64,000 nucleotides of DNA from a virus (taxonomy: Duplodnaviria > Caudoviricetes). Position 1 is the stretch's first letter. The number at the start of each line of letters is the position of its first letter. The stretch spans positions 61,537-125,536 of the IMG/VR virus record IMGVR_UViG_2695421015_000001. One strand, 5' to 3'. This document shows, piece after piece, positions 7,775 to 28,834 of this stretch. The notes beneath the pieces were generated by a model, which saw nothing but the letters and a program-made list of their open reading frames with translations, searched no databases and had not been told where the DNA came from. The position numbers and the translations under genes are program-made.

Positions 7775-7887
7775 ACTTTTACCACTTCCTCCTCGCCGCG
7801 TTTGCGATCTACGCGATGTTTAGCGCGGCTGACGCGCTGCATCGCATCGCCGCTGCTGTCGAGACTATCGCGGGCGAGGACGAATGA
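7771..7887 (+). CDS. Small hydrophobic peptide (38 aa)
   Basis: Read manually; ATGA overlaps at both ends. Confidence 0.55.
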   Translation: MNFYHFLLAAFAIYAMFSAADALHRIAAAVETIAGEDE

Positions 7888-8386: not shown

Positions 8387-8562
8387 CCAGCAAGCAGATC
8401 GTCAACCTGCGCGTCGGCCAGATGGTCCGCACCAAGCACATGCCGGACCGCTTCTGGAAGATCACCAAGGTCTACGTCCCCACCGGGGGCGGGCGCGTGC
8501 TCGAACTCGAAGGCGCGCTCTGGATCGGGCCCAGCCAGGTCGAAGAGGTTCTGCCCTCATGA
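8383..8562 (+). CDS. Hypothetical protein (59 aa)
   Basis: Read manually; ATGA overlaps. Confidence 0.55.
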   Translation: MTSKQIVNLRVGQMVRTKHMPDRFWKITKVYVPTGGGRVLELEGALWIGPSQVEEVLPS

Positions 8563-8762
8563 TGAGTGCCGCATTGATGCACGACGCTCTCAAGTCTGCC
8601 GACATGATCGACGAGCGCGATCTCCCGAAGCATCGGCCGACGCCCGAGATGATTGCCGACGCGCACCGTCGCAACGCTGCTCCGCGGCCCATCGTCTCGT
8701 GGCTGATGGGTGATCCGGCGCCGGGACAGAGCGCGCTCGACAAGCGCAACAGCGCCGTGTGA
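8559..8762 (+). CDS. Phage protein with C-terminal LMGDPxPGxSALD motif
   Basis: Motif recurrent in alphaproteobacterial phage proteins. Confidence 0.6.
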   Translation: MMSAALMHDALKSADMIDERDLPKHRPTPEMIADAHRRNAAPRPIVSWLMGDPAPGQSALDKRNSAV

Positions 8763-8779
8763 TTTTTTTCGGCGACGGG

Positions 8780-8809
8780 CTTGCGGCAGGACTCGCGCCT
8801 TGCTATCTC
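8780..8809 (+). promoter_or_regulatory. Putative sigma70 promoter
   Basis: cTTGCGG-17 bp-TATCTC (preceded by TGC), upstream of a hairpin-rich leader and the tRNA. Confidence 0.4.
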
Positions 8810-8972
8810 GCCTCTCGATGATCGGCGCCTTGATGTGCCGCACATTCCGACTAAACGAGGGGCGCTTCTGTCGGGGGCGTCCCTCGATTTGTTTCTGGCG
8901 GAAGCACTCAAAAGAGTCGTAAGTCTGCGGCTATGGCCCGCAGCGCCAGTTCGCCGAGATAGGCTGGATGAG

Positions 8973-9158
8973 ATGACCAACCCGATCGCCAAAGTCGTGC
9001 ACTGCCCGACATGCGGCGCGCCTCCCGGGCGCGCCTGCCAGCAGCTCAGACCTGATCGGATCAGGGTCGTGCCGACGCACTCCGCTCGCCGGAAGCTGCT
9101 CGAGCAACCAGTCAGGGTTCGTACCGCAAGCCGCAAGGCCCCACGCTCCCTCGCGTAG
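8973..9158 (+). CDS. Small zinc-finger protein
   Basis: CPTCGAPPGRAC...H..R motif. Confidence 0.6.
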   Translation: MTNPIAKVVHCPTCGAPPGRACQQLRPDRIRVVPTHSARRKLLEQPVRVRTASRKAPRSLA

Positions 9159-9230
9159 CCGTCGAAGTACAAGGCGGGTAGTCGCGGATCAAAGCGGGTT
9201 GGTGACGGCGGGAAAGAACGCACCCAATTC

Positions 9231-9305
9231 GCTGGAATAGCTCAGCGGTAGAGCAGCAGTTTTGTAAACTGACGGTCGGTGGTTCAATCCCATCTTCCAG
9301 CACCA
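9231..9305 (+). tRNA. tRNA-Thr (anticodon UGU)
   Basis: Cloverleaf: acceptor GCTGGAA/TTCCAGC, D arm GCTC/GAGC, anticodon loop TTTGTAA, TTCAATC T-loop, encoded CCA. Confidence 0.95.
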
Positions 9306-9406
9306 ACCAAAGCGCGGTGCCAGCCGTTCGTCACCTGAAGACATAGGGGTGGCTGGCTAAGTGGGGCCATGTGTCAACGGCCGCGCCCATTTCATTTCGC
9401 CGTGAG

Positions 9407-9583
9407 TTAATCCTCGGAGGTGAACATCCAGAGGCGGACTCGCGGACTTTGTCCCGTCGCCCACTTCCACGCCCAGATCGAGATGTAGACGGGCAGGCAT
9501 ATCACCCAAAGGACGACGGCAAACATCCACACCAGCACGTTCTTGACGCCGATGTCAGGCGGCGCCTTAAACTCATCACTCAT
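9407..9583 (-). CDS. Small membrane protein (58 aa, MSDEFKAPPDIGVKNVLVWMFAVVLWVICLPVYISIWAWKW...)
   Basis: Read manually; one strong TM; start overlaps the stop of 9576..9719. Confidence 0.6.
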   Translation of the reverse strand: MSDEFKAPPDIGVKNVLVWMFAVVLWVICLPVYISIWAWKWATGQSPRVRLWMFTSED

Positions 9584-9719
9584 AGTTGAAGCGGTTCTTT
9601 CGGAAGATCACTTTCGCCTTGAACCGGATGAAGGCGCAGAACGGCAGTAAGGCGTCCCAGAGCAGGTAGAGCGCCGGGCAAAGCAATAGCCAAGCGGTCT
9701 TGATCGCGAGCTTTTTCAT
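9576..9719 (-). CDS. Small hydrophobic/basic peptide (47 aa, MKKLAIKTAWLLLCPALYLLWDALLPFCAFIRFKAK...)
   Basis: Read manually; translationally coupled to the next minus-strand ORF. Confidence 0.55.
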   Translation of the reverse strand: MKKLAIKTAWLLLCPALYLLWDALLPFCAFIRFKAKVIFRKNRFNYE

Positions 9720-9785
9720 GGGCTGCGCGTACCTCGCGGCGGCTACGTCCGCAATTCAACTGTTCTTCACAATCTCCGGAAAACC

Positions 9786-10065
9786 AATAACTCGCTCGTC
9801 GGGCCCGTGCCCGATCGGGACGCCGGAAAGAGCGAGTAACTTTCTTCACCCAGGGGTGTCCGCCCGTCACTGCCGTCGCAACGGTACGGTCACCGGCCCC
9901 CGCTCATAGCAAGCTGTGCTAACCGGAGGGCGACGTGTCCGGTCGGCAGATGTCGGTGCAAGGCACGTCCCGACGGAAGGCAGGGAAACCGGCGACCAAA
10001 TCAGCCCGCTGTAAGGCGATGGGGCGAAACATCGTCGGAGGTCCGCAAGCCTCCAAGCCAATTCA
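9786..10065 (+). ncRNA. Candidate structured RNA
   Basis: No convincing ORF; dense helices (actcgctc/gagcgagt, tgccgt/acggta, gtcgg/ccgac, cgatg/catcg, ggagg/cctcc) and several GCAA/GAAA/GTAA words. Confidence 0.4.
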
Positions 10066-10076
10066 TCGAGGGCGGC

Positions 10077-10277
10077 ATGAAGAAGATCGCAGTTATCGCG
10101 CTGCTGGCGTGCTCGCTGGGCGGATGCGCGTCCGTCCCTCTCGCCACGGGTCTCGCGGTCGCCGGCGTCGCCATCTCGGCCGGGAGCCTCGCGGTTGCCA
10201 CCGGCACCTTGAGCATGAACGCAGTCCACAACTGCAAGGCTGACGGCGGCTGCAAGGACGTCAAGCTGCCCAAGTAA
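10077..10277 (+). CDS. Small lipoprotein
   Basis: MKK + hydrophobic core + lipobox LGG-C. Confidence 0.75.
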   Translation: MKKIAVIALLACSLGGCASVPLATGLAVAGVAISAGSLAVATGTLSMNAVHNCKADGGCKDVKLPK

Positions 10278-10313
10278 TCCCCACCACCCCGAACCCCCAC
10301 TTCGGAGCCCACC

Positions 10314-10529
10314 ATGACTGTAAGCGTTACGATCGACGTGCCCGAGCACGTCGAGCGCGTCGTCGTCCAGACCCAGAGCCTCACTCCGGACGGCTGGAAG
10401 AACGACAATCCCGTCGCGTACGGGCCCGGCAAGCACTTCGTGCACATCTGGGACACCAAGCGGATCTCCTGCGTCGCGGAGCCTTCACCCGGCGAGGAAT
10501 TGCCGCCCGGCACCTTCGTCGTCGGGTAG
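10314..10529 (+). CDS. Hypothetical protein
   Basis: GGAG RBS; ORF. Confidence 0.65.
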   Translation: MTVSVTIDVPEHVERVVVQTQSLTPDGWKNDNPVAYGPGKHFVHIWDTKRISCVAEPSPGEELPPGTFVVG

Positions 10530-10640
10530 CGCAGCAATGAAGACCATCCTGATGTTCGTCATCGTGGCGCTGCTCTGGATCGGCCTTGGCCATCTGGTCG
10601 AGCAGAACGACCACATCATCACGCTGCTGGAGCAGCACCG

Positions 10641-10892
10641 GTGAGCGCGCTGCTACCGTCGGTCTACGAGAACGACGATGTCCGCAGCCACGAAGATCTG
10701 TGTACGATCAATCGCGAGCGCGAGGCCAACGGCCAGCGCCCGATCTCGCCCCCGATGAGCTTCAGGCGCGGCTATAGCCGGCTGAGGTCTCTCTCGTTCA
10801 ATCAAGAGCACGGCTACGGCGGCTGGACGTTCGGCCGCAACGCCAAGCTCAAGCCGAAGCGCGTCGAGCGCAAGCCGAAGCGGCGGGCATGA
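10641..10892 (+). CDS. Hypothetical basic protein
   Basis: Coupled ORF. Confidence 0.6.
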   Translation: MSALLPSVYENDDVRSHEDLCTINREREANGQRPISPPMSFRRGYSRLRSLSFNQEHGYGGWTFGRNAKLKPKRVERKPKRRA

Positions 10893-11077
10893 CCATGAGC
10901 ACCCCTGAAGATCCTCACTTCCGCGTCGGCGAGATCGTCGTTGCAGAGGGCAGGCCGTTCAAGATGACGGTCGAGAGTGCCGAGGCCGCTGGCCGCGTTG
11001 GCTGCACCTGGTCCGAACTCGGCGCGGTGTTCCACGCCGTGTTCTTTGCCGGCGAACTCCGCAAGGTGAACGCATGA
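10889..11077 (+). CDS. YodC/DUF2158-like small protein
   Basis: FRVGEIV...KMTVE...VGCTW...F...L pattern. Confidence 0.55.
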   Translation: MTMSTPEDPHFRVGEIVVAEGRPFKMTVESAEAAGRVGCTWSELGAVFHAVFFAGELRKVNA

Positions 11078-11451
11078 AGCTGATGCTCTGCGAGGACTGC
11101 GGCGACATCGTCGCCCCGTCGCGGACGGACTTCAAGGTCCGCTGGTGCGACTGTGGCCGTCACGCCGTCTGGTGGGAGAACGGCCTCGCGGGCAAGCTCG
11201 TGATGCACGACAAGGTGTCGGGCGTCCTCGACCGCCCCGACAGCATCTATGACGGCTTCCCCAAGACCGGCCCGAAGGCGTGGGTGCTCGGCATCCACAA
11301 CGGCGCGCTGACCGAGAAGCTCGATCCGGGCGTGGTGCAGCGGATGCTGGCCAACTCCATAGGCTTCATTTTCCACGATGTCGGCTCGCTGATCGCGCGG
11401 TTCCGTCCGCTCGCCACCAACGACACGCGCTGGAGCTCGAAGCTGCCGTGA
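11074..11451 (+). CDS. Zinc-binding hypothetical protein
   Basis: CEDCGD...CDCG. Confidence 0.7.
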   Translation: MKLMLCEDCGDIVAPSRTDFKVRWCDCGRHAVWWENGLAGKLVMHDKVSGVLDRPDSIYDGFPKTGPKAWVLGIHNGALTEKLDPGVVQRMLANSIGFIFHDVGSLIARFRPLATNDTRWSSKLP

Positions 11452-11593
11452 CCTTCTTCCTGCTCGCGTGGCGCGCCTCCATCATCGTCACCGTCACGCT
11501 CATGCTGGCGCCGCTGGAAGGCGTCTTCGACGGCATCGAGACCGAGCTTGAGCGCCGAGGCGTCGAGCTTTAATCCCCACGAAGATCCCCCAC

Positions 11594-13092: not shown

Positions 13093-13821
13093 GTGGCCGG
13101 TCTCGACTCGATCAAGCACCTGCGCGGCGACGACCTGATCGCCGAGTACAAGGAACGCTACGGCGACAAGACTCTGATCGCGTTCTCGCGCGGCAAGGAC
13201 TCCATCGCGGCAGCGCTGGCGCTCCGCGATAAGATCGAGATGATCCCGTTCCACTACGACGACGTGCCGGGACTGGAACTCATCGACGAGAGCATCGCCT
13301 ACTACGAGAAAAACCTGTTCGGCCGGCGCATCCTGCGCATGCCGAACCCGGCGTTCTACAAACACTTGCGCGAGGGCATGTTCCAGCCCATCCGCCGCTC
13401 ACAGACCCTCGCTGCCTCATCGATCCCGCACCTCAACCACGCCGACGTGGTTCAAATGGTCAAGGATCAGGAAGGCATCGAGGGCGACATCCTGTCCGCC
13501 ACGGGCGTCCGCGCCCTCGACAACGCGATCCGCTTCCTGTCGATCCGCAAGCACGGACCGATCCGTTCCGGCGCCGGCAACTGGGCGCCGATCTGGGACT
13601 GGTCCAAGCAGCGGCTGATGGACGAGATCGAGAAGAGCGGCATCTCGCTGCCGCCCGATTACACGTTCCTGCCGCGCTCGCTCGACGGCTTCTCCTACCT
13701 GTACCTGATCCCGCTCAGGAAGCACTACCCGCGCGACTACGAGCGGATCTTGGAGTGGTTCCCGATCGCCGAGGCCGAGCTGCTTCGCTACGAAATCAAT
13801 CAGAGGTTCTACCCCACGTGA
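13093..13821 (+). CDS. PAPS-reductase-like (PP-loop) protein
   Basis: IAFSRGKDS PP-loop, TGVRALD and PIWDWS motifs. Confidence 0.8.
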   Translation: MAGLDSIKHLRGDDLIAEYKERYGDKTLIAFSRGKDSIAAALALRDKIEMIPFHYDDVPGLELIDESIAYYEKNLFGRRILRMPNPAFYKHLREGMFQPIRRSQTLAASSIPHLNHADVVQMVKDQEGIEGDILSATGVRALDNAIRFLSIRKHGPIRSGAGNWAPIWDWSKQRLMDEIEKSGISLPPDYTFLPRSLDGFSYLYLIPLRKHYPRDYERILEWFPIAEAELLRYEINQRFYPT

Positions 13822-16715: not shown

Positions 16716-17198
16716 ATGCCATACAAAGCACTCGCGAGCGACGGTAAGGACGGCCGCAAGCGCAAAGGCAAGCGCACGACCAAGAACTCCTCGACCGCCC
16801 CGCGCAAGCTCGTCATCACCGCCCGGTTCAGGGAGAAGGCCGCAGAGGCCGTCCAGTACCGGCTGCTCGGATACAAGTTCCAGCAGATCGCCGACGAGAT
16901 GAAGATCGACATCGCGTACGCCCACCGCCTCGTCAAATGGGCCAAGGACCGCGAGCCGGTCGAAGGCGCTGCCGAGCTGAAAGCGCTCATGAGCGACCGT
17001 CTCGAAATGATGCTGACCGGCACGCTCGGTAATGCATTCGAGGGCGACAGCGAGGCGCAGGAGCAGTCGCGCCGGACCATGGAAATTCAGGCCAAGCTCC
17101 ACGGCCTCTACGCGGCGCAGAAGCTGGAGCATTCAGGCGAGGTCGCCGGAGGCGGCACGTCCGTGATCGTCATCTCCTCGGACGATGCCAAGCTCTAA
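16716..17198 (+). CDS. terS: Terminase small subunit (putative)
   Basis: HTH (GYKFQQIADEM), KLEHSG tail, overlaps the TerL start. Confidence 0.75.
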   Translation: MPYKALASDGKDGRKRKGKRTTKNSSTAPRKLVITARFREKAAEAVQYRLLGYKFQQIADEMKIDIAYAHRLVKWAKDREPVEGAAELKALMSDRLEMMLTGTLGNAFEGDSEAQEQSRRTMEIQAKLHGLYAAQKLEHSGEVAGGGTSVIVISSDDAKL

Positions 17199-18840
17199 GG
17201 GCGTCCGCAAAGTCCAGATCGGGGACAACGGCGGCCCCCCAATCAATAGCTGGGGAGAGAAGGGCGCTACGCCCGCTCAACTCAAGGCGACCAAACTGCT
17301 GGGCGGCCCGCAGCGCCACACCTGCCTCGTCGGCGGCGCGCGATCGGGCAAGACCACGACGCTGGTCCGCACCATCATGCTGCGTGCGATCCGCTTCCCG
17401 GGGTCGCGCCATGTGATCCTGCGCTTCCGCGCAGTCCACGCCGACGCTTCCGTCGCCCTCGATACGATCCCGAAGGTGATGAAGATGTGCTTCCCCTCGC
17501 AGGGGTATAAGCACGTCAAGTCGCCTCACAACCTGATCCGCTTGCCGAACGGATCGGAAGTCTGGATCGGCGGCCTCGATGACGCCGCCCGCGTCGACAA
17601 GATCCTCGGCAACGAATACGCCACCATCTTTCTCAACGAGTGCAGCCAGATCAGCTGGTACTCGGCCAAGCTCGTCCGCTCCCGTCTCGCCCAGGTGATC
17701 GACGGTTGCACGCAGCGGATGCTCTACGACATCAACCCGGTCGGCAAGTCGCATTGGACCAACCAGCTGTTCGGGCTGAAGGTCGACCCCGACAACGGCC
17801 GCACGCCGCTCGGCGATCCCGAAAACTACGAGCGGATGTTCATCAATCCGATCGACAACGCCCAGAACCTCGACGCCGGCTACGTCAAGGAACTCGAGAA
17901 CTCGACCGGCAACTACAACAAGCGCTTCTTCAAGGGCGAGTACATCGACGAGGTCAACAACGCGCTTTGGACCCTCGATCTGATCGAGGCTTGCCGCGTC
18001 AACCCCGGCGAGGAGCCCGAGTTCGTCCAGACCGTGATCGCAATCGACCCGTCGGGGGCGAGCGAAGCGGGCGATTCATCCGACATCGAGATGAAGCCGC
18101 TGAACGACGAGATCGGCATCATCGTCGCCTCGCTCGGCAAGGATCAGAAAGTCTACCTGCGCGCCGACCTGTCGTTGGTGGCCGGGCCCATCGGTCAGGG
18201 CATCGATCCCGAGACAGGGCAGAAGCGTCTTGGATGGGCCGAGGTGGCGGTCGCTGCCTACCACTATTACAAGGCCGATCACATCCTCGCCGAGATCAAC
18301 TACGGCGGCGGCATGGTCGAGGCCGTGATCCGCGCCCAGGACGGCAACGTGCCGGTCAAGACCGTGCGCGCCTCCACCGGCAAGCACATCCGGGCCGAGC
18401 CTGTATCCACGTTGTATACGCGCGACGGCGTCCGCCACGTCGGCCAGTTCCCGCAGCTGGAGGATCAGCTTTGCGCGTTCACGTCGCTCGGATACGGCGG
18501 CGCCAAGTCGCCGGATCGCGCTGATGCGTGGGTCTGGGCAGTGACGGATATCGCGCTGCAGGACGGCGCCAACAACTGGATCGAATACTACAGAAGGCTC
18601 AACGAGAAGGCCGGCACGCTTCCAGAGCAACAGGCCGACGAGAAGAAGCCGGAGTTCGGCTACGCGATCACTCCGCCAGACGCCAACAAGAAACACCGCG
18701 TGCTCGTGCCAGAGGGCATCAGCACGCTCTTCCTGATCGACGGGACCAGCATGCTGGTTCCCGTTGACCGCATCGTCTCGGTCTCCGCGGAGGACGCCAC
18801 CGCATTTGGAATGCGCGGTTGGGAGCGTCTGGCCGCCTGA
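17185..18840 (+). CDS. terL: Terminase large subunit with C-terminal extension
   Basis: Walker A GGARSGKT, Walker B IFLNE, nuclease AIDP...E.NYGG...SPDRADA. Confidence 0.95.
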   Translation: MPSSKGVRKVQIGDNGGPPINSWGEKGATPAQLKATKLLGGPQRHTCLVGGARSGKTTTLVRTIMLRAIRFPGSRHVILRFRAVHADASVALDTIPKVMKMCFPSQGYKHVKSPHNLIRLPNGSEVWIGGLDDAARVDKILGNEYATIFLNECSQISWYSAKLVRSRLAQVIDGCTQRMLYDINPVGKSHWTNQLFGLKVDPDNGRTPLGDPENYERMFINPIDNAQNLDAGYVKELENSTGNYNKRFFKGEYIDEVNNALWTLDLIEACRVNPGEEPEFVQTVIAIDPSGASEAGDSSDIEMKPLNDEIGIIVASLGKDQKVYLRADLSLVAGPIGQGIDPETGQKRLGWAEVAVAAYHYYKADHILAEINYGGGMVEAVIRAQDGNVPVKTVRASTGKHIRAEPVSTLYTRDGVRHVGQFPQLEDQLCAFTSLGYGGAKSPDRADAWVWAVTDIALQDGANNWIEYYRRLNEKAGTLPEQQADEKKPEFGYAITPPDANKKHRVLVPEGISTLFLIDGTSMLVPVDRIVSVSAEDATAFGMRGWERLAA

Positions 18841-19188: not shown

Positions 19189-20859
19189 GTGGTCGATAAC
19201 GTCGGCGACGATCCTGACCTGAACAAGGTCTCGACTCCGCGTGGAGAGGGTCGCAGCATGACCGAGCTGTCGCAGCTCGGCTCCTATGACGTGCGCGTGA
19301 ATGGCGCGCGCCCGCAGTCTGGCGTCCAGTTCTCCTACACTGGCCCGGACTGGATGGGGCCGCTGCTGCCGATGCAGCCGATCGCGCCGCCCGAGGTCGC
19401 CGGCCGCACATGGGACTATGTCCCCGGCTACAACCTCACGACGCAGCCGCGCGCCTATGAGCCGGTCAGCTTCCATGCCCTGCGCATGCTCGCCGAGAGC
19501 TTCGATCCCGTGCGCCTCATCATCGAGCGCCGCAAGGATCAGATGTGCCGGATGCCGTGGGCGATCCGGGTCAAGCACGACGATCCGACCAAGAAGCGGC
19601 CAGCGATCACCGAGTTGCCGAAGGCCAAGCGTCAGCGCCTGGCCGACATCACGAATTTCTTCAAGTACCCCGACCGCGAGCTGACCTTCCGGGTCTGGCT
19701 GCGGGCGCTGCTGGAAGACCTGCTCGTCCTCGACGCGCCCAGCCTCTACTGCGAGCACAGCATCGGCGGCGACCTGATCGGCCTGCGCTACATCGACGGC
19801 TCGACCATCAAGCGCGTCATCGACGACTGGGGCCGCACGCCGCAGCCGATCGTCTGGACCGGACAGCCTTTCGACTGGAACGGCTACACCGTCACGGCTG
19901 AGAACTTCCGGAGCCTCGGCTTCGTACTCGCCCCCGGCGAGGTCGTCGCCCACCAGATGCCGATGGGTATGAAGACCCCGAAGCAGGTGCTGCTTCCGCC
20001 CGCCTATCAGCAGGTGCTCAAGGGTCTGCCCGCGGTCAACTACACGACGTGGGACCTGATCTATCGTCCGCTCAATCTGCGCCCCGGCAAGGCCTACGGC
20101 CTGTCGCCGGTCGAGCAGGTGATGATGACCGTCTCGATCGCGATGCGCCGCAGCGTCGCTCAGCTCGAATACTTCCGCGAGGGCAACCAGCCCGACGCCG
20201 TGTACGGCCTGCCGGAGTCGTGGACGCCGGATCAGATCCAGCGTTTCCAAGACTATTGGGACGGCCTGTATTCCGGCAATCTGGCGATGCGCCGACGGAT
20301 GAAGTTCGTCGCCGGCGAGGGCAAGTACACCCCGACCCACGAACCGCCGCTCAAGAACGAGTTCGACGAGTGGCTGGTCCGCATCGTCTGCTTCGCCTTC
20401 TCGTATCCGCCGCAGGCCTTTGTCGCGCTCTCGAACCGCTCGACCGCCGAGCAGCACGAGAAGACGGCCGAGGAGGAGGGGCTCGACCCGCTCAAGGAGT
20501 GGGCGGGTGAGATGTTCAACGAGATCATCACACGCCGTTTCGGCGACGATGACATCGAGTTCGCGTGGACCGAAGAGGAAGAGGTCGACCAAGAAAAGCA
20601 GTCGACCATCCTGCGCGGCTACGCCGAGGACGGCATGCTCACCATCAATCAGGTGCGCGAGAAGCTCGGCGAGCAACCCGATCCGAACCCGGCGGCCAAC
20701 CAGCTCATGGTCAAAACGGCCACCGGCTACGTGCCGATCGACGCCAACCTGATCGACAAGCAGGTCGAGGCGGCCAAGGCGATGGCAGCTGCCGTCCCGC
20801 CGACACCCACACCGGTCACGACCGGCGGGCCCAAGCCCGCCCCCGACGAAGACGAGTGA
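19189..20859 (+). CDS. Portal protein (alternative start at 19258)
   Basis: LLEDLLVLDA, YGLSPVEQ, YFREGNQP and LTINQVRE.LG motifs; follows TerL. Confidence 0.92.
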   Translation: MVDNVGDDPDLNKVSTPRGEGRSMTELSQLGSYDVRVNGARPQSGVQFSYTGPDWMGPLLPMQPIAPPEVAGRTWDYVPGYNLTTQPRAYEPVSFHALRMLAESFDPVRLIIERRKDQMCRMPWAIRVKHDDPTKKRPAITELPKAKRQRLADITNFFKYPDRELTFRVWLRALLEDLLVLDAPSLYCEHSIGGDLIGLRYIDGSTIKRVIDDWGRTPQPIVWTGQPFDWNGYTVTAENFRSLGFVLAPGEVVAHQMPMGMKTPKQVLLPPAYQQVLKGLPAVNYTTWDLIYRPLNLRPGKAYGLSPVEQVMMTVSIAMRRSVAQLEYFREGNQPDAVYGLPESWTPDQIQRFQDYWDGLYSGNLAMRRRMKFVAGEGKYTPTHEPPLKNEFDEWLVRIVCFAFSYPPQAFVALSNRSTAEQHEKTAEEEGLDPLKEWAGEMFNEIITRRFGDDDIEFAWTEEEEVDQEKQSTILRGYAEDGMLTINQVREKLGEQPDPNPAANQLMVKTATGYVPIDANLIDKQVEAAKAMAAAVPPTPTPVTTGGPKPAPDEDE

Positions 20860-20864
20860 TCGAT

Positions 20865-21026
20865 ATGCCCAGACCAGCAGGCTCCTATCGCGGCGCCCGC
20901 CGCAACGAGGCGAAGCAGAGCAAGAAGCCGATGCTGACCCTCGAAGAACTCCGCCGCATCAACGCGATGCGGATCGAGCGAACGAAGCCCGATAACCGCA
21001 AGCAGAGCGAAGCCCTGAGAAAATGA
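20865..21026 (+). CDS. Small basic protein
   Basis: ATG at 20865; ATGA overlap with the next gene. Confidence 0.55.
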   Translation: MPRPAGSYRGARRNEAKQSKKPMLTLEELRRINAMRIERTKPDNRKQSEALRK

Positions 21027-22453
21027 CCACGCATCGACTGATCCCGCCGGCCGTCGCGTCAAAGGTCACTCTCGACGGTCGCGTCTATGATCCGGCCGCC
21101 GGTGGGCAGGACGTCCCCGACTATGATTCCATGGCGCTGCAAGCGAATGGCTGGAGCTTTCTGGCCGTCAGCGGCCCCACGTCGGCGCGACCGCACGCGG
21201 CTGTCGGGCCTTATCCGTTGCTTCGCGGCACCACGTTCTGGGACACGTCCGTCGACCATCTGGTCTCGTGGGACGGGGCAACATGGCGCGACGAAAACGG
21301 CAACATACCGCAGGTCACATTCCCGCTGCAGGCGCGGATGGTCGGCCTTGGTGACTCCATCATGGCAGGCTCGGTGGGGCCGAGCCTTCTGAACCCGGCG
21401 CTCTACTACAGCGGTGGCCGGTTCTATCTCGTATCCAACCAAGGCGTTGGCGGGTCAACCACGGTCGATATGCTTTCGCGGAACGCCACGACCACCGGCG
21501 GCGTCGCCAGCACGCTGACGCTGTCTCCTGACGTGGTCGATCTGCACATCGGCACCAACGACATCACGGGCCTTGGGTCGGGCGCGGCGGCGATCTTCGC
21601 CAACATCCAGGCGATCGTCAGCGAACTCACTGCCGGCGGCGTGAAGGCGGTCTTCGTCCACACCGTCCTGCCGCGCAGCGACAGCGCGTGGACCGCCGCC
21701 TACGAGACGGTCAGGCAGGCGCTCAACGCCAGCATCATGACGCTGCAGTATCCGGCGATCCCGGTGAACCTCGAAACCATCGGCTTCAACTCGACGATCG
21801 GTGTCGACACTGTCGAGGGTCTGCACCCGAACAGGCCCGGCGCGTGGCTGGTCGGATCGGCGGTCGGCGCAGCATGGGCGTCGAAAGCGGTTACCAACTC
21901 TGTGCTGTTCAACAGCGCATCCGACTGGGGCAATCTGCTCGTCGACAACGACATGACCGAGGGAACGGCCGGCGTCCTTCTTGGCACTGGCACGACCGGC
22001 AGCGTTCCTACCGGGTGGAATGCCGGCGTCAACGTGACCGGCATGACAACAACGTGCTCGATCGCGACAAAGAACGGCTTCCCTCAGATGGTCGCCAACT
22101 TCAGCGGGACGCCCGGCTCCTCCGGCATTCTCCTGCTCTATCGAGATCAGGCCTACAGCGGCAACATCGGCGATGTCTACGACTGCTGGGCTGATGTCGA
22201 GATGGCCGGACTGACCGGAGTCGGCGGCACCTTTTTCGCAACGGATGGCGTGACGGTTTGGGAGGCCTCCGGCAACGCGCTGGGGCAGCCGCCGAATTTC
22301 AACGGCATCATGCGCGGCGGCCCGGCCGCCCCGCTCACGGCGGCCCGCACCGTGTCCAGATTCCAGTTCGGCGTCTATCTCGAGTCCGGCGTGGCCTGCA
22401 GCGGAACAATCAAGCTCTCGCGCTGCACCTGGCGCAAGAACCCATCACCGTAA
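21023..22453 (+). CDS. Head-associated SGNH/GDSL esterase with N-terminal docking domain
   Basis: GDS...G.GG...GTND...GLHP blocks; first ~95 aa paralogous to 22486..22785. Confidence 0.8.
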   Translation: MTTHRLIPPAVASKVTLDGRVYDPAAGGQDVPDYDSMALQANGWSFLAVSGPTSARPHAAVGPYPLLRGTTFWDTSVDHLVSWDGATWRDENGNIPQVTFPLQARMVGLGDSIMAGSVGPSLLNPALYYSGGRFYLVSNQGVGGSTTVDMLSRNATTTGGVASTLTLSPDVVDLHIGTNDITGLGSGAAAIFANIQAIVSELTAGGVKAVFVHTVLPRSDSAWTAAYETVRQALNASIMTLQYPAIPVNLETIGFNSTIGVDTVEGLHPNRPGAWLVGSAVGAAWASKAVTNSVLFNSASDWGNLLVDNDMTEGTAGVLLGTGTTGSVPTGWNAGVNVTGMTTTCSIATKNGFPQMVANFSGTPGSSGILLLYRDQAYSGNIGDVYDCWADVEMAGLTGVGGTFFATDGVTVWEASGNALGQPPNFNGIMRGGPAAPLTAARTVSRFQFGVYLESGVACSGTIKLSRCTWRKNPSP

Positions 22454-22485
22454 CAAAAACCGAACTCAGCCCAAGGGGAATGTAA

Positions 22486-22785
22486 ATGACCGCGCCGCTC
22501 ACGCACCGTCTGATCCCGCCCGCCAACGGCGGCAACGTCAAGGTCAACGGCCGCACCTATTCCGCCACTGCCGGCGCTCAGGACGTGCCGGAGTTCGACG
22601 CCACGCATCTTCAGGCCAACGGTTGGACCTACCTCGCACCGTCGGGGCCGACCACCCAGCGTCCGACCAGCGAACTCGGTGTCTATCCGCGCGTGCGCGG
22701 CGCCAAGTTCTGGGACGCCACGCTCTCGCACATGGTGATCTGGGACGGCGCGAACTGGCGCAACGAGGCGGGCGCCATCTCGTAA
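22486..22785 (+). CDS. Small head decoration/adaptor protein
   Basis: Whole protein aligns with the N-terminus of 21023..22453. Confidence 0.75.
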   Translation: MTAPLTHRLIPPANGGNVKVNGRTYSATAGAQDVPEFDATHLQANGWTYLAPSGPTTQRPTSELGVYPRVRGAKFWDATLSHMVIWDGANWRNEAGAIS

Positions 22786-22919
22786 TTCCGCTCCTCGGCC
22801 AGTCGCAGGTCGATCGACCACAGCACCGCAAGCATGACGCGGTTGTTGATGTGGCGCCGCCACTCCTCGTCGCTCAGAACCGCGATGTCGCCGGTGGCTG
22901 TGATCTCAAGGTCATCCAT
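22683..22919 (-). CDS. Possible antisense small protein (MDDLEITATGDIAVLSDEEWRR...)
   Basis: Fills the 22786-22946 gap with GC3-rich codons; weak AGGGTG RBS; overlaps the end of the + gene. Confidence 0.3.
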   Translation of the reverse strand: MDDLEITATGDIAVLSDEEWRRHINNRVMLAVLWSIDLRLAEERNYEMAPASLRQFAPSQITMCESVASQNLAPRTRG

Positions 22920-22946
22920 GCGGATCACCCTTAAGAGGAAATTGAA

Positions 22947-25900
22947 GTGACCGCAATCGAGAAATCGACCTTTGCCGAACCGGCATCGGCGACGAGCGGC
23001 TTGCAGGGCTACGACCTCGAAGGCGCCAGCAACAACAAGCGCACGTTCTATCGCCATGGCGGCAAGATCACGCTTGGCCCCGAGAAGTGCGAGGAGCCTG
23101 ACGTCGAGAAGCAGGCGCCGATCCTTGCCGCCGGTTTCGCGCTCGTCACCGACGAGGGCAAGGCGCTGTTCCTCAAGCGCAGCGGCGGCGATGGCGGCGA
23201 CCACGCCGGCGAGTGGTGCTTCCCGGGAGGGAAGATCGAGCCGGGCGAGACGGCCTTGCAGGCCGCGATCCGCGAGACGTTCGAAGAGATCAGCTTCAGG
23301 CTCGATCCCGAGGGCGACCGCGTCGAGGTCTGCCGCGTCACGCTCAACGGTGTCGACTTTACCACCTTCTTCCAGCGCGTCGACGAGTTCGAGCCCAAGC
23401 TCGACCATGAACACACAGCGTTTCGCTGGGCTTCGGTCGAAAAGCCGCCGGAGCCGCTGCATCCCGGCGTTCGCGCCTCGCTGCCGCTGGTGATTTCGCA
23501 GGCGATCGACACGACTATGAAGGTCGCCAAGGGCGAGAAGCGCACGCTCTACATCAAGCGCCGGCTGCGAAACGCCGAGACGCTGAAGCAGTGGGCGGAC
23601 GCTAACGGCTTTCCGACCACGCTTACCACCGACGATATGCACGTCACCATCGCGTATTCGCGCGAGCCGGTGGAGTGGGCACAAGTTCCGCGCTCGTCGC
23701 AGCCGATCATTCGGATCGAAGGCGGCGCACGCACTCTCGATCGTCTCGGCAAGGATGGCGAAGCGCTCGTGCTTCGCTTCTCGTCCGACGATCTCGCCTC
23801 GCGTCATCGCGAGATCCACGACGCTGGCGCCGTCTGGTCGTGGCCTGACTACAAGCCGCACATCACCCTGACCTACCAAGGAGAGGGGCTTCCGCTCGAT
23901 CGGTTGGTCCCTTGGGACGGCGTGCTCGAATTTGGCCCCGAAGAATGGGCCGAAGTCAAAGAAAATTGGATGGCAACCGTCGTCGAGAAATCCGACGCAG
24001 GAGAAGTAGAAATGGATAACCTTTCCTTGTTCGTGCAGCTGCACAAGGTCGATGTCGAGAAGCAGACCGTCTACGGCACTGCGGTCGAAGAAGTGGCCGA
24101 TCGCGCTGGCGAGATTTTCGACTACGCCACCTCCAAGGGCGAGTTCGAGAAGTGGTCGGGCGATATTGAAAAGTCCACGGACGGCAAGTCCAAGGGCAAT
24201 GTGCGCGCGATGCATGGCAAGGTCGCCGCCGGCAAACTGACCGACATCGGCTTCGACGACAAGCGCAAGGCGATCGATGTCGCCGCCAAGATCGTCGACA
24301 AGGACGAATGGCAGAAGGTTCTGGAGGGTGTTTACACCGGCTTCTCCATCGGCGGCTCTTATCTCAAGCGCTGGACCGACGGCGATTTGAAGCGCTACAC
24401 CGCGCGCCCCGCCGAAATTTCGCTGGTCGATCTGCCGTGCGTACCGACCGCCACCTTCTCCATCATCAAGGCGGATGGCTCCCAGGAGATGCGCAAGTTC
24501 CAGCAGCCCGCTGCGGACGAGCCCGTCACCATCAGCAACGAGGCCGTCGCAGAGCGCGCGACCGATCTCGCCAAGGCCGCCGGCGATGCCGGCCAGTGGC
24601 TCGCTCATATCGCCGATGCCCGCAAGCAGCTCGAAGACGAGGTCGCGAAGGCGGCTGAAGCGGCCAAGGTTGTCGAGCCGGTGGTTGTTGACACAGAAGT
24701 CAACAAGGACGGTGTGACCGTCGATGCCGACGCCGGCCGGACCACTCCCGACGACGTCGAGCAGGTCTGGGTATCCAAGCGCCTGCCCGGTGCGACCTTC
24801 GCCAAGAAGGGCGACCTCGCCAAGGCGCTGCTCGAACTCGACGCCAAGGAAGCGGCTGCCGCCGCTGCCGCGCCGGTGCTTGATGCGCTCAAGGCCGTGA
24901 CCGGTACCGGCATGGATACTCAGGCCGTGTCCACGCACAAGGACAAGAACTCCAAGACCAACGTCGAGCACGCATCCGGCAAGACGGACAAGACCAACCC
25001 CGAGAAGGTCGACGGCAGGAAGCCGAAGGGCGCCGACACCAACGTGGAGGCAACCTCCGGCGTCAAGCCCGCCGGCAACAGCGTCAACACCGAACAGACC
25101 GACCCGAAGAACAACGAGACGACCGACCTCTATGGCGGTGCAGACTCGACGGCTGGCAAGCGCGCCCCGATCGAGAGCGTGAAGGATCTCGAGATCGCGC
25201 TCAAGTCGCACCAGCCCGGACAGGCCGGTCTCGCGATGAAGCGTCACCTGATCAAGGCCGCACGCACTCTCGGCTCGATCGACCTGCTGCCGGAAGGCTG
25301 GGTCAACAAGGCCGAGAAGGTCGAACTGGAGAAGGCGGCCGACATCCACTTCGTGGCCGACCTCCTGCACATGCTCGCCTGCGTGGAATGCCTTGAAGAG
25401 CGCGCCGAGTTCACCTCGCTGTGGGGCGGCATCACCGTTCCGAAGGAGCTGACCGACCGCTTCGGCAGCGCGCTGGTCGAGATCGGCGACATTGTCTCCG
25501 ACATGCTCGACCTGGTGCTCAACGAAATCCGCACCGAGGAGGCGAGCGAGGCCTCGAAGGCGGCGGTGTTCGTCGATCTGCTCAAGCGCGGCGCCCGTCA
25601 CTCGGCTCGCGACAAGGCCATCATCAAGAAGACCCACGACCACATGGTCGAACTCGACAAGTCGTGCTGCGGCGGCGGTATGGACAAGACCGTGACCGTC
25701 GATGTGGCCAAGGCTGCCGAAATCGAAGCGGTCACCGCCGAGAACGAGCAGCTCAAGGCCGAGAAGGCCGCCCATGGCGAACTGCTCAAGGACATCAAGG
25801 CCGGCATCGAAGCGATGACGACCAAGATGGCCACCATGGAGACCGAGAACGCGGCGCTCAAGAAGAGTTCCGAGGAGATCAGGGTCGATCTCTCCGCCAT

Positions 25901-26048
25901 CCGCTTCACGCCGGCGCCGGTGCCACCCGGCACGTTCCGCGTGATCGAGAAGGGCCTGCCCATCCAGGACATCTCCACGATCAGCGACGCTGAACTTCAG
26001 CGCCGCGGCGCGGAGGCGCAGGCCACCCGGTTCATGGGGCCTCGCTAA
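22947..26048 (+). CDS. NUDIX hydrolase - Acb1-like 2H phosphoesterase - prohead protease/scaffold fusion
   Basis: NUDIX box GGKIEPGETALQAAIRETFEE; 2H motifs HVTIAYS and HITLTY; protease RAMH..GFSIGG..EISLVD.P; coiled-coil tail; possible internal ATG at 24012. Confidence 0.85.
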   Translation: MTAIEKSTFAEPASATSGLQGYDLEGASNNKRTFYRHGGKITLGPEKCEEPDVEKQAPILAAGFALVTDEGKALFLKRSGGDGGDHAGEWCFPGGKIEPGETALQAAIRETFEEISFRLDPEGDRVEVCRVTLNGVDFTTFFQRVDEFEPKLDHEHTAFRWASVEKPPEPLHPGVRASLPLVISQAIDTTMKVAKGEKRTLYIKRRLRNAETLKQWADANGFPTTLTTDDMHVTIAYSREPVEWAQVPRSSQPIIRIEGGARTLDRLGKDGEALVLRFSSDDLASRHREIHDAGAVWSWPDYKPHITLTYQGEGLPLDRLVPWDGVLEFGPEEWAEVKENWMATVVEKSDAGEVEMDNLSLFVQLHKVDVEKQTVYGTAVEEVADRAGEIFDYATSKGEFEKWSGDIEKSTDGKSKGNVRAMHGKVAAGKLTDIGFDDKRKAIDVAAKIVDKDEWQKVLEGVYTGFSIGGSYLKRWTDGDLKRYTARPAEISLVDLPCVPTATFSIIKADGSQEMRKFQQPAADEPVTISNEAVAERATDLAKAAGDAGQWLAHIADARKQLEDEVAKAAEAAKVVEPVVVDTEVNKDGVTVDADAGRTTPDDVEQVWVSKRLPGATFAKKGDLAKALLELDAKEAAAAAAAPVLDALKAVTGTGMDTQAVSTHKDKNSKTNVEHASGKTDKTNPEKVDGRKPKGADTNVEATSGVKPAGNSVNTEQTDPKNNETTDLYGGADSTAGKRAPIESVKDLEIALKSHQPGQAGLAMKRHLIKAARTLGSIDLLPEGWVNKAEKVELEKAADIHFVADLLHMLACVECLEERAEFTSLWGGITVPKELTDRFGSALVEIGDIVSDMLDLVLNEIRTEEASEASKAAVFVDLLKRGARHSARDKAIIKKTHDHMVELDKSCCGGGMDKTVTVDVAKAAEIEAVTAENEQLKAEKAAHGELLKDIKAGIEAMTTKMATMETENAALKKSSEEIRVDLSAIRFTPAPVPPGTFRVIEKGLPIQDISTISDAELQRRGAEAQATRFMGPR

Positions 26049-26053
26049 AATAG

Positions 26054-26521
26054 ATGAGCGCTACCACGCTCGACAATCGCGCGCCGCGGCCACCCGCGGC
26101 AGCAACCAAACCACTCGGCACCAATCCAAAGGACATGGTCGGCCTCAAAAAGGTCGACCTGTCCGTGGTGCCGGGGATCGCCTTGTTCCACGAGGCGATG
26201 GCCATGATGGACGGAGCCCGGAAGTACGGCCCGTTTAATTGGCGGGACAACGCCGTTATGGCCCGCATCTACGTCGCCGCCGCTCTACGGCACATCCAAT
26301 ACTGGGCGGCCGGCGAAGAAGTAGCCAAGGATTCCGGGGTTCATCATCTCGGCCATGCGCGCGCATGCCTTGGCATCATTTTGGACGCACAGGCGACCGG
26401 TAACCTGATCGACGATCGGGCGAAGTCGGCTGTGCTGATCGAAGCGCTCGATGCGCTCAACGACACGGTCCGGCTCGGCGCCGAAGCGCGCAAGGCTGCC
26501 GCCGACGGAGTCAACCGATGA
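26054..26521 (+). CDS. dATP/dGTP diphosphohydrolase domain protein (DUF5664-like)
   Basis: NPKD..G.KK...GA.KYG..NWR...A.RH...GE..A.DSG.HHLGHA. Confidence 0.85.
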   Translation: MSATTLDNRAPRPPAAATKPLGTNPKDMVGLKKVDLSVVPGIALFHEAMAMMDGARKYGPFNWRDNAVMARIYVAAALRHIQYWAAGEEVAKDSGVHHLGHARACLGIILDAQATGNLIDDRAKSAVLIEALDALNDTVRLGAEARKAAADGVNR

Positions 26522-27057
26522 AGCGTCTGTTGCGGTACAATTCGCGGCACATGCTGCATTTCCCGGGCGACGGGAAGATGCCGCAGCTCAATCCGCTCAG
26601 CTACTCCAGTCAGAGCAAGAGCGGCAAGCGCACGAAATCGCTCCACGAGCCGTTGCGGATGTTTCGTTTGCGCCAGCGGCTGTTCTGCTTTGCCGGCCGA
26701 CAGCGGTGCGGTGAGCGCGGCGAAGGCGCTTCGACGCCGGACACCTGGGACCTCGGGCCCGACGATAACCGGACTTGCTCCCACTGCGGTTCGATCCATC
26801 CCGACGACCTGATGGAGATTTGCCGCAAGACCCTTGTGGACGATCGATACGGCATCGAGGGGACCACCAAAAGCTACAAGGTCTATGTGCGTCAGCCGGG
26901 CGTGAGAAACGCCAGCGAGGGCGCCATCAAGTTTTACAAATGGCACGCGCCGGAAAGCCCGACCGAAGAGGATCAGGAGCTTTTCGCCCGCGCGTGCCGC
27001 GTGACGAGAGAACGATTTGACGCGCAGTGGGCCAAGACCCGCGCGTCCGCTTCGTAA
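26518..27057 (+). CDS. Hypothetical protein with CSHCGS motif
   Basis: ATGA-coupled ORF. Confidence 0.65.
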   Translation: MKRLLRYNSRHMLHFPGDGKMPQLNPLSYSSQSKSGKRTKSLHEPLRMFRLRQRLFCFAGRQRCGERGEGASTPDTWDLGPDDNRTCSHCGSIHPDDLMEICRKTLVDDRYGIEGTTKSYKVYVRQPGVRNASEGAIKFYKWHAPESPTEEDQELFARACRVTRERFDAQWAKTRASAS

Positions 27058-27078
27058 GTCACCTTCCACGAAATTCTC

Positions 27079-27186
27079 GCGCGCCTTCCGGGGACGGAAG
27101 GAGAGCGCGGATCAAGCGAACCGAAAGCCCGCCGGGGACGGCGAGGGCTCGCGGATCGCGCACGCCTGCCACCGGGGACGGTGGTC
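27079..27186 (+). promoter_or_regulatory. Three hairpins with identical CCG-GGGA-CGG apex in the capsid 5' UTR
   Basis: ccttCCGGGGACGGaagg, cgCCGGGGACGGcg and ccaCCGGGGACGGtgg. Confidence 0.8.
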
Positions 27187-27226
27187 ACACCCGCACATCC
27201 ACTCATTCAAAATTCGGAGAAACACG

Positions 27227-28834
27227 ATGAACGCAATCGTGCGTAACATCGCATACAGCGAGCATCTGCCGCTGGAACTGCAAAAGGGCTGGGCGCCCAT
27301 CTACGGTCAGGGCGGCAACATCGACCGCGCTGCCATCGCCGCTGAAGTCGCGAGCTTCCTCGCCTCGGTGCAGAAGACGCAGGCCGTCAAGGACTTCGTT
27401 CCGGACTTCCTGTCCAAGAGCACCTTCCAGCAGGCCGGTTCGGCCACCTCGGGCCTGACCTACTACGATCTCGAGCTCGGCGCGAAGTTCGTCTATCCCG
27501 TGCTGACGCCGCTGCGCAATGAGATCCCGCGCGTCACCGGAAAAGGGGGCATCCAAGCCGCCTGGAGGGCGGTCACCGGCGTCAACACCGGCGGCATGCG
27601 GATCGGCGTCTCGTCCGGCAACCGCGGCGGTGTGCAGGCGGTCTCCACGCAGGACTATTCTGCGGCTTACCGCGGGCTCGGCCTGGAAACCAACGTCGAC
27701 TTCGAGGCCGAATACGCCGGCCGCGGCTTCGACGACATCCGCGCGATCGCGGCCAAGGTCGGCCTCGAAGCCACGATGATCGGCGAAGAGGGCGTGCTGC
27801 TCGGCGGCAACACCTCGTTGCAGCTCGGCATCACACCGACCCCGACGGTGACCGCCTCGGCCACTGGCGGCGCGCTTGCGGCGGCGACCTATTCGGTCAT
27901 CTGCGTCGCGCTCGCGTTCGACGCTGTGCTCTACGGCTCGATCGCTGGCGGCATCCAGGCCTCCATCACCCGCACCAACGCTGACGGCTCGTCCGACACC
28001 TTCGGTGGCGGCTCGGCCCAGAAGTCGGCCAACGCCACCGGCACCGTGGCCACCGGCACCGCCGGCTCGCTCACCGCGACCGTCACCCCCGTCACCGGCG
28101 CCTGCGGCTACGCATGGTTCTGGGGCGCAGCGGGTTCGGAAGTGCTCGGCGCTATCACGACCATCAACTCGGTCGCGATCGTGGCTGCTGCAACCGGCAC
28201 CCAGACGGCGGCGTCGCTGCCGGCGGGAGACTTCTCGACCAACAGCCTCGTGTTCGACGGCATCATCACCCAGATCCTCAAGAATGGGTCGAATGCCTAC
28301 TTCGCGATCCAGTCGAGCGGCACCGCAGGTGTCGGCACCCCGCTCACCGCGGATGGCTCCGGTGGCATCGTCGAGATCGACATGGCGCTGAAGGATCGTT
28401 GGGATAACTACCGCCTGTCGCCCGACACCATCTGGGTGAACTCGCAGGAGGCGCTCAACATCTCGAAGAAGATCCTGCAGGGCAACAGCAATGCGGCCCA
28501 GCGCTTCGTCTTCGACAGCCGGCAGGACTCGCTCGGCGGCGGCATCATGGTGCGCTCGTACCTGAACCGCTTCTCGATGGGCGGCGCCAAGTCCCTCGAC
28601 ATCCGCATCCATCCGAACATGCCGCCCGGCACGATCGTGATGACCAGCCGCTCGCTGCCGTACCCCGTGTCCGGCATCGCGAACGTGCTGCAGGTGCGGG
28701 CACGGCAGGATTACTACCAGATCGAGTGGCCGCTGCGGACCCGCAAGTACGAGTCCGGCGTGTACTGCGACGAGGTGCTGCAGTGCTACTTCCCGCCCGC
28801 TTTCGCGGTGATCACCAACATCGGTAACGGCTAA
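27227..28834 (+). CDS. Major capsid protein with Thr/Gly-rich insertion domain
   Basis: GGAGA RBS; YDLE..AK..YPVLTPLRN.IPRV; QDYYQIEWP; AFAVITNI C-terminus; position after the protease. Confidence 0.85.
   Translation: MNAIVRNIAYSEHLPLELQKGWAPIYGQGGNIDRAAIAAEVASFLASVQKTQAVKDFVPDFLSKSTFQQAGSATSGLTYYDLELGAKFVYPVLTPLRNEIPRVTGKGGIQAAWRAVTGVNTGGMRIGVSSGNRGGVQAVSTQDYSAAYRGLGLETNVDFEAEYAGRGFDDIRAIAAKVGLEATMIGEEGVLLGGNTSLQLGITPTPTVTASATGGALAAATYSVICVALAFDAVLYGSIAGGIQASITRTNADGSSDTFGGGSAQKSANATGTVATGTAGSLTATVTPVTGACGYAWFWGAAGSEVLGAITTINSVAIVAAATGTQTAASLPAGDFSTNSLVFDGIITQILKNGSNAYFAIQSSGTAGVGTPLTADGSGGIVEIDMALKDRWDNYRLSPDTIWVNSQEALNISKKILQGNSNAAQRFVFDSRQDSLGGGIMVRSYLNRFSMGGAKSLDIRIHPNMPPGTIVMTSRSLPYPVSGIANVLQVRARQDYYQIEWPLRTRKYESGVYCDEVLQCYFPPAFAVITNIGNG

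Follow-up and report, generated by a model that had tools for sequence, protein, structure and literature searches.

We analysed a 64,000-nucleotide stretch of DNA (the window; positions 61,537 to 125,536 of IMG/VR record IMGVR_UViG_2695421015_000001), which is the late region of a myovirus-like prophage within a single-contig genome of 9,092,136 bases. Between its portal and capsid genes, an open reading frame (ORF) with a GTG start (22947-26048, plus strand) encodes a polyprotein of 1,033 residues. An original prediction, made from the letters alone, had described this ORF as NUDIX and Acb1-type enzymes joined to the prohead protease and scaffold, and domain assignments by Pfam, PHROG and AlphaFold2 agree with that description. 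Enzyme modules are here joined to a head morphogenesis protein, as in head-packaged effector fusions that follow a polyvalent or MuF-type logic. The protein begins with a copy of the capsid N-terminal arm (hereafter the tag), and the placement of the enzymes behind it points to counter-defence that is loaded or timed through head assembly.

Domain organization of the polyprotein

The GTG at 22947-22949 is the first available start codon, because an in-frame TAA lies five codons upstream (22932-22934). A ribosome-binding site, AAGAGGA (22933-22939), ends 7 nt ahead of it and would give the long, cargo-bearing isoform. The tag occupies residues 6-26 (22962-23024) and copies the start of the capsid N-arm, with Lys6 in front. 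It is followed by linker 1 (residues 27-55; 23025-23111), which was delimited from the alignment and the list of candidate cleavage sites and ends in one such site, K55. In an AlphaFold2 model of the full polyprotein, built on 120 relatives, residues 1-50, 341-360, 575-604 and 655-738 are disordered.

The NUDIX module spans residues 56-193 (23112-23525), and its fold is modelled confidently over this range, with a predicted local distance difference test score (pLDDT) of about 95. Pfam PF00293 scores 64.1 bits over residues 61-177 against a cut-off of 21.1. The NUDIX box G-x5-E-x7-R-E-x2-E-E starts at residue 95 (nt 23229) and has the catalytic Glu residues of the consensus GX5EX7REUXEEXGU. 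Likeness to MutT-, NudG- and Ap4A-type enzymes is only generic, and the module also matches the portal genes of Bcep781 and BcepNY3. As a side observation, NUDIX residues 65-165 match the PADLOC candidate defence-system model PDC-S07 (E = 1.5e-13); judged from this match, related NUDIX domains may serve both sides of the conflict. Related NUDIX domains also occur in the short relatives P0122-P0240, alongside DUF2213 (PF09979), topoisomerase IB (PF01028), ADP-ribosyltransferase toxin (PF03496) and Mu F (PF04233) domains.

The Acb1-type 2H phosphodiesterase follows at residues 199-345 (23541-23981). Pfam PF23474 scores 126.9 bits over residues 199-343 against a cut-off of 27 and is covered from profile position 1 to 143 of 144. 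Its HxT motifs, at residues 232 and 305 (23640-23648 and 23859-23867), both align with those of T4 Acb1 (chain 7t26, E = 1.1e-9). The domain is closer to the solved C-terminal domain of the Pam3 portal (8hds, E = 6.4e-17), and it also matches portal genes of phiPSA1-like phages. LigT (about 20 bits) and 2'-5' RNA ligase models give weak hits. The NUDIX box and the two 2H motifs had been recognized from the sequence before any search, and both families lie far above their Pfam cut-offs. The two enzymes probably destroy bacterial alarm nucleotides.

Linker 3 (23982-24014) holds candidate site K348, the word AGGAG (23999-24003) and an ATG (24012-24014) that encodes Met356, the first residue of the predicted prohead maturation protease (residues 356-575; 24012-24671). 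The protease domain is modelled with pLDDT above 90 over residues 361-575. PHROG 9427, a head maturation protease family, matches residues 356-560 (E = 3.3e-9), BFVD entries named prohead protease match the domain (E = 6.1e-8 and 1.2e-7), and Peptidase_S78_2 is matched at E <= 0.01 by 25 of 35 related domains (best 9.4e-7). His423 (24213-24215) and Ser467 (24345-24347) are invariant in the 120 relatives and are candidate catalytic residues of an XkdF/S78-like protease.

A spacer (residues 576-739; 24672-25163), modelled as one long helix plus low-complexity disordered stretches, leads to the putative scaffold part (residues 740-1033, then the stop codon; 25164-26048). This part is helical over residues 745-1030 in the model and is matched by no family model. 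Residues K796, K880, G882 and A883 are at least 90% conserved among the 120 relatives, and K796 (25332-25334) is invariant in 27 of 27 tag-bearing ones. Conserved scaffold motifs recur in separate proteins encoded upstream of the capsid gene in three other loci (L122, L120 and L115). The predicted order, protease and then scaffold behind the enzymes, agrees with the PHROG match, the gene position and the helical C-terminal part.

The tag is homologous to the capsid arm

Residues 4-25 of the polyprotein are identical to residues 62-83 of the capsid protein at 14 of 22 positions (BLASTP E = 4e-6). When a profile of 27 tag-bearing relatives was compared with one of 64 capsids, the sole hit aligned tag residues 4-31 with capsid residues 61-88 (probability 90.5%, E = 1.4e-6). 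In six frames the motif occurs twice in the whole genome, as tag and as capsid. The N-terminal near-copy of a capsid motif that was first noticed by inspection is thereby upheld, and chance as its cause is ruled out by the two genome hits and the profile-profile E-value. On the DNA level only about half of the aligned columns agree (37 identical), and identical residues are often encoded by different codons. Hence, recent gene conversion is ruled out as the origin, and the likeness has been kept at the protein level. Positions T8, P12, T16, G18, Y22 and L24 are invariant in the 27 tag-bearing relatives.

The arm motif of the capsid protein lies at 27416-27475 (plus strand), behind a leader of residues 1-64 with putative cleavage after Lys64. 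The capsid gene (27227-28834, plus strand; PHROG 13692, E = 1e-138) encodes an HK97-fold major capsid protein. No sequence relative of this protein was found in the PDB; its model has pLDDT 79.9, and Foldseek matches it to the HK97-fold capsids of Pa223, SU10 and HK97. In the monomer model confidence drops under pLDDT 50 across residues 51-75, and the model is also poor over the residues that bear the motif (65-83), which fits an N-arm because such an arm contacts other subunits.

Distribution of the tag and the enzyme modules

We surveyed the best 120 relatives, ranked by likeness to a query that carries both tag and cargo, so that fractions among them are not population frequencies. The tag was found in 34 of the 120, at the N-terminus in 27 and internally in 7. 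A recognizable NUDIX and/or 2H module is present in 26 relatives, 23 of which have the tag, and three Acb1-bearing relatives lack it. Another 11 tag-bearing relatives have no recognizable enzyme, and several of these join the tag to the protease by a short basic linker. Where the tag is internal it sits behind an N-terminal domain: Acb1 lies upstream of the tag in three relatives (P0021 to P0023), and a domain without an assigned family does so in two (P0045 and P0089). Of the 34 tags, 19 are preceded by Lys and 13 by the initiator Met; either would leave the tag with the free N-terminus of the putative mature capsid.

N-terminal extensions are shuffled among relatives. They comprise NUDIX-Acb1, Acb1-NUDIX, either enzyme alone, a Cys-rich mini-module and one domain without a family; NUDIX precedes Acb1 in some sets of relatives and follows it in others, and 78 of the 120 have no extension. 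Several further modules were seen in the same proteins. The Cys-rich module (four Cys, one His; no Pfam match) often stands behind the tag (P0002, P0006, P0010, P0011, P0013, P0014, P0016, P0017, P0019 and P0031); residues 27-55 of the window protein align with its second half and have lost most of the Cys residues. A ChaB domain (PF06150, E of about 1e-8 to 1e-9) is inserted in the scaffold part of P0014, P0019 and P0089, and P0080 has a collagen-like stretch. An extra N-terminal domain of about 165-200 residues precedes the tag or the protease in P0015, P0032, P0039, P0042, P0045, P0050 and P0089, with no Pfam match in the two that were scanned (P0032 and P0089).

The tag also exists apart from the protease. 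Degenerate DNA pattern scans for other tag lineages found seven loci (L120, L122, L140, L153, L168, L115 and L105) in which it stands at the start of a separate protein without enzymes. The gene for this protein immediately precedes the capsid gene in L120, L140 and L168. L122 has a short protease gene that is overlapped by the next gene, the product of which starts with the tag and has the mid-scaffold motif of the window protein. The separate proteins are about 430-570 residues long in L120, L140, L153, L168 and L115, and at least 500 residues in L105, which is cut off. Their C-terminal ends are alike, and by eye also resemble those of the fused relatives P0026, P0028 and P0080; the tag-bearing protein of L115 had no PHROG match. 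On the reverse strand of L120 (oriented 7302-11582), a 1,426-residue protein begins with a protease domain and is followed by the separate tag protein directly upstream of the capsid gene, so the same functions are split very differently from the window. A stand-alone tag-plus-enzyme protein was not found among 120 listed shorter proteins, four of which have the tag; three of the four are on contigs of 1.9 kb or less and one contains the protease.

Because tags without enzymes, enzymes without a tag, Acb1 upstream of the tag and separate tag proteins all occur, the comparison of sequences identifies the tag as a scaffold feature and not a cargo feature. Any head targeting of the enzymes would therefore come from the scaffold part.

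A nested start and candidate cleavage sites

The internal start proposed in the original prediction, GGAG-N8-ATG at 24012, is exact, its GGAG being part of the AGGAG word of linker 3. Met356 does not vary among the 27 fused relatives compared, and each of the 7 distinct loci that bear tag or cargo keeps a Shine-Dalgarno-like word at -16 to -5, inside coding sequence. The background for such a word is 6 of 103 other in-frame ATGs and 12.7% of all codon positions. Most relatives, including tagless ones, begin at a Met equivalent to Met356 with a strong Shine-Dalgarno sequence ahead. This conservation of the Met and its Shine-Dalgarno site makes a nested protease-scaffold isoform likely.

In HK97 the capsid protein is cleaved behind a Lys where its arm begins. 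Every one of the 102 distinct capsid contexts from the collected loci has a Lys 3-10 residues ahead of the arm core, with L, I, F, M or V at P3; P1' is S or A in 88. Upstream of this Lys the capsid leaders diverge. The polyprotein has 19 sites of the same hydrophobic-x-Lys-small form, and the N-terminal extension has one per linker (K6, K55, K195 and K348); none lies within the 284 residues of the NUDIX and Acb1 domains. Across 27 cargo-bearing relatives the density is 13.9 per 1,000 residues outside enzyme domains and 3.0 per 1,000 inside, a descriptive comparison only as the sequences are related. Glu/Asp-Lys follows within 14 residues of 19 of 20 Acb1 ends. The Lys-Ser and Lys-Ala words that had been noticed near domain borders correspond to K6, K348 and K796, and candidate Lys sites stand at every module border.

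Gene neighbourhood

The gene order, assigned with Pfam and PHROGs, is large terminase (17185-18840), portal, lipase-like gene, polyprotein ORF, two small ORFs and capsid, followed by a head-tail adaptor, a sheath-like protein, the tape measure, baseplate and fibre genes. The portal gene (19189-20859, plus strand) matches Pfam Phage_portal and PHROG 2662, and the GDSL-lipase-like gene (21023-22453, plus strand) lies between portal and protease. A scan of 22400-27300 found neither a promoter-like site nor a plus-strand terminator-like site. The polyprotein has one full copy in the genome. None of 273 matching records of isolated phages covers at least 80% of it, and a family-level genome sample held protease-level relatives only, in 8 of 400 genomes, with 0 of 14 in the same genus.

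Several neighbouring genes deserve a separate mention. The 155-residue ORF at 26054-26521 (plus strand), in the interval between scaffold and capsid, encodes a dATP/dGTP diphosphohydrolase N-terminal domain (PF18909, E = 1.4e-24; PHROG 2252, E = 9e-47) and is a third nucleotide-acting enzyme in the head module. The ORF at 26518-27057 had no PHROG match. A 99-residue ORF (22486-22785, plus strand) duplicates the first approximately 95 residues of the GDSL-lipase-like gene (52 of 93 identical, E = 2e-37), and a PAPS (3'-phosphoadenosine-5'-phosphosulfate)-reductase-like ORF (13093-13821, plus strand; PHROG 2302, E = 5e-14) lies upstream of the terminase.

Proposed function

The reading we favour, with a probability of roughly 0.55, is that the ORF encodes a long isoform of the protease-scaffold protein, a modular chassis that brings late counter-defence enzymes into proheads, where maturation cleavage frees them. 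We infer that both forms are translated: initiation at GTG 22947 would give tag-NUDIX-Acb1-protease-scaffold, and the Shine-Dalgarno sequence with ATG 24012 would give the ordinary protease-scaffold that most relatives encode alone. Through the scaffold part, both forms would assemble together with the capsid protein, and the protease would cut hydrophobic-x-Lys-small sites at the capsid leader/arm boundary, in the four extension linkers and in the scaffold. Because neither enzyme domain has a candidate site, the enzymes would be released intact inside the prohead, possibly to be carried on with the DNA, and could additionally act in the late cytoplasm before assembly. Cyclic-oligonucleotide defence signals would be the substrate of the Acb1 module. 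Prohead proteases are reported to switch on the cyclic-oligonucleotide-based antiphage signalling system (CBASS), and therefore the antidote would be made in one piece with a trigger. The tag would be a surrogate of the capsid N-arm that most likely binds the partner of the real arm, which may be the shell, the protease or the scaffold C-terminus. Both enzyme families recur on other head proteins, Acb1 on Pam3 and phiPSA1-like portals and NUDIX on Bcep781 and BcepNY3 portals, and of 150 genomes sampled from the host genus, 31 have SMODS-family genes.

Several points weigh against this reading, in addition to the ranking of the relatives described above. Because scaffolds usually exit or undergo degradation ahead of packaging, the enzymes might be lost as well, and the portal-fused homologues stay on the portal, which argues for a location in the head and not for injection. 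The lysogen genome itself has no SMODS gene. On the side of the enzymes, two non-catalytic positions of the NUDIX box differ from the consensus, the NUDIX part matches no NCBIfam equivalog above cut-off (best 40.1 bits against 245), and the Acb1 part (200-345) is modelled moderately, with block mean pLDDT of 37-77. The protease domain has no solved homologue by sequence in the PDB, and Peptidase_S78_2 scores 17.9 bits on the whole protein and 22.6 bits on the domain alone against a cut-off of 24. The site pattern has exceptions, with 16 candidate sites inside the enzyme domains of relatives and the Lys pattern missing at 3 of 15 NUDIX ends. AlphaFold2 leaves the tag disordered and undocked (pLDDT 36-44), which is weak evidence.

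The survey of tag-capsid co-variation, suggested in the original prediction as a check, belongs with these points as well. Within the lineage of the window (five pairs) none was seen, and the tag keeps its own signature despite small changes in the capsid arm. When five lineages (window, L120, L140, L153 and L168) are compared, cognate pairs together reach 83 identities over stretches of 29 residues, the maximum of all pairings, which 2 of 120 permutations attain (mean 70.2). Co-variation is thus absent inside the lineage and modest across lineages; the direction of the latter, from five lineages only, would fit a shared binding partner.

Alternative explanations

The most credible alternative, which we consider possible and compatible with the chassis reading, is that the enzymes serve only as an antidote in the producer cell. 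The fusion would then ensure that they are produced when and where the protease-scaffold, a known type of CBASS trigger, is produced. They would work in the cytoplasm late in infection, ahead of encapsidation or in its absence, with no useful delivery to the next host. CBASS is reported to be activated late, when the prohead protease cuts CD-NTase (cGAS/DncV-like nucleotidyltransferase) loops (PMC12991175), and an outline heading of 10.1101/2023.05.21.541620 states that CBASS-dependent toxicity can be induced by expressing a prohead-protease scaffold domain. Early injection would be of little gain to an enzyme that degrades a late signal, and expulsion is the normal fate of a scaffold. However, both enzyme families are also fused to portals, which are permanent head components, and the enrichment of candidate sites in linkers together with their depletion in enzymes fits a protease that works mostly inside proheads.

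Two further alternatives concern the tag, and we regard both as doubtful. The first is that the tag is a protease recognition element only, either a cleavage site for trimming or release, or a pseudo-substrate that resembles the product and keeps the protease occupied until assembly. The Lys or Met in front of the tags would leave a mature-capsid-like N-terminus, internal tags follow a Lys right after the upstream domain, and in L120 tag and capsid have the same three residues before the putative cut. However, conservation extends about 21 residues past that cut, beyond the usual needs of a site, and Met-starting tags are equally conserved although there is nothing to cut off. The AlphaFold2 model, in which the tag does not sit on the protease of its own chain, also speaks, weakly, against it.

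The second, which we hold in similar doubt, goes further than the chassis reading. Here scaffolding proteins of this capsid family would bear an N-terminal, co-evolving arm surrogate that competes for the docking partner of the arm (shell, protease or scaffold C-terminus) and, as a placeholder, couples scaffold binding and release to capsid maturation. A sub-lineage would use the surrounding stretch as an insertion site for swappable counter-defence enzymes, which would place a CBASS trigger and a signal destroyer in one polypeptide and ship the enzyme in the head.

It is improbable that, instead of counter-defence, the enzymes work with the neighbouring MazZ-like diphosphohydrolase in nucleotide-pool sanitation or RNA-end repair. 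The generic resemblance of the NUDIX part to MutT-, NudG- and Ap4A-type enzymes would allow such a role, the 2H superfamily includes RNA-repair enzymes, LigT and 2'-5' RNA ligase give weak hits, and the diphosphohydrolase-like ORF adjoins at 26054-26521. However, the 2H part scores 126.9 bits for Acb1 as opposed to about 20 bits for LigT, and a scaffold or a portal would be an odd place to fuse a housekeeping enzyme.

Even less probable is the role that the original prediction had given to the tag, that of a capsid mimic which targets the enzymes into heads. Its homology to the capsid arm and its presence in 23 of the 26 enzyme-bearing relatives would fit an address. Nevertheless, we reject a tag as cargo address in view of the 11 enzyme-free tags, the three tagless enzyme-bearers, the separate enzyme-free tag protein in seven loci and the upstream Acb1 of P0021 to P0023, where cleavage behind the Lys that precedes the tag would part Acb1 from it. 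An internal position in seven relatives and the lack of a stand-alone tag-plus-enzyme protein among the 120 listed shorter proteins speak against it too.

That the ORF is an artefact of prophage decay, with separate genes fused by frame errors, is largely refuted: the window does lie within a chromosome, but relatives at 40-76% identity have the same continuous architecture on independent contigs and genomes, and the catalytic motifs are intact.

If the chassis reading is true, the polyprotein would be a natural system for modular loading of folded enzymes into HK97-type heads, through scaffold fusion, protease-matched linkers and a nested start that possibly sets the dose. It would physically link a reported CBASS trigger to an Acb1-type degrader, which bears on how phages cope with defences that sense late assembly. 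A scaffold element derived from the capsid arm could explain how some scaffolds recognize or release capsid, and the tag might be useful for engineering cargo-loaded phage heads.

Comparison with known systems

Fusions of such enzymes to head proteins have been noted before. Iyer, Burroughs, Anantharaman and Aravind (2022; PMC9503650) describe NUDIX domains fused to MuF, portal or a capsid-processing serine peptidase, and 2H domains fused to MuF or portal, and predict that these fusions are head-packaged and counter nucleotide signalling. Hence, the general idea of head-packaged NUDIX and 2H fusions is not new, and the portal fusions are seen again here. In its passages on these fusions we found no mention of tandem NUDIX and Acb1 on a protease-scaffold, their shuffled order, a nested start, linker Lys sites or the tag, although its supplement may list such architectures. 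In open-access full texts, supplements excluded, we found no earlier account of a scaffold or protease that bears a copy of the capsid arm or of an Acb1-protease fusion, nor of tandem shuffled cargo on a protease-scaffold, of linker-matched sites or of a retained internal start. The scaffold tag and the module shuffling thus appear to be new.

An Acb1 module on a prohead protease is notable because prohead proteases are reported to activate CD-NTases by cleaving a loop and thereby to switch on CBASS (PMC12991175). T4 Acb1 (7t26) belongs to the same Pfam family and both of its HxT motifs align with those of the window protein. In contrast, it is a free-standing protein of about 150 residues, whereas the domain here is a module of a 1,033-residue morphogenetic protein, with predicted activity only.

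For the tag, the nearest precedent, by analogy, is phage 80alpha. Its capsid and scaffold have a common N-terminal motif at a protease site, and the scaffold copy is required for assembly (PMC5744158). As described there, the motif lies at the site of a host protease (Prp), which removes 13-14 N-terminal residues. In the window protein, by contrast, the common part comes after the putative cut and would be retained, and the protease is phage-encoded. The nearest precedent, again by analogy, for protease-trimmed counter-defence proteins on the inner shell is the DarA/Hdf system of P1. These counter-defence proteins are located on the inner capsid surface, and the N-terminus of DarA is trimmed by the prohead protease near the capsid cleavage site (PMC12810830). 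They differ in being separate proteins, for which no capsid-arm copy is reported, and in protecting against restriction, not signalling.

The layout of the polyprotein without its extension has familiar counterparts. In lambda C/Nu3 and P2 gpO one frame gives protease and scaffold functions, and internal in-frame starts give shorter products. Neither is known to carry enzymatic cargo or a capsid-arm copy. In T4, head loading is linked to the capsid targeting sequence of internal proteins, a short N-terminal peptide that is removed by the prohead protease and is unlike the capsid protein. In contrast to the T4 peptide, the tag is also present on proteins that have no cargo, and loading here would depend on the scaffold part.

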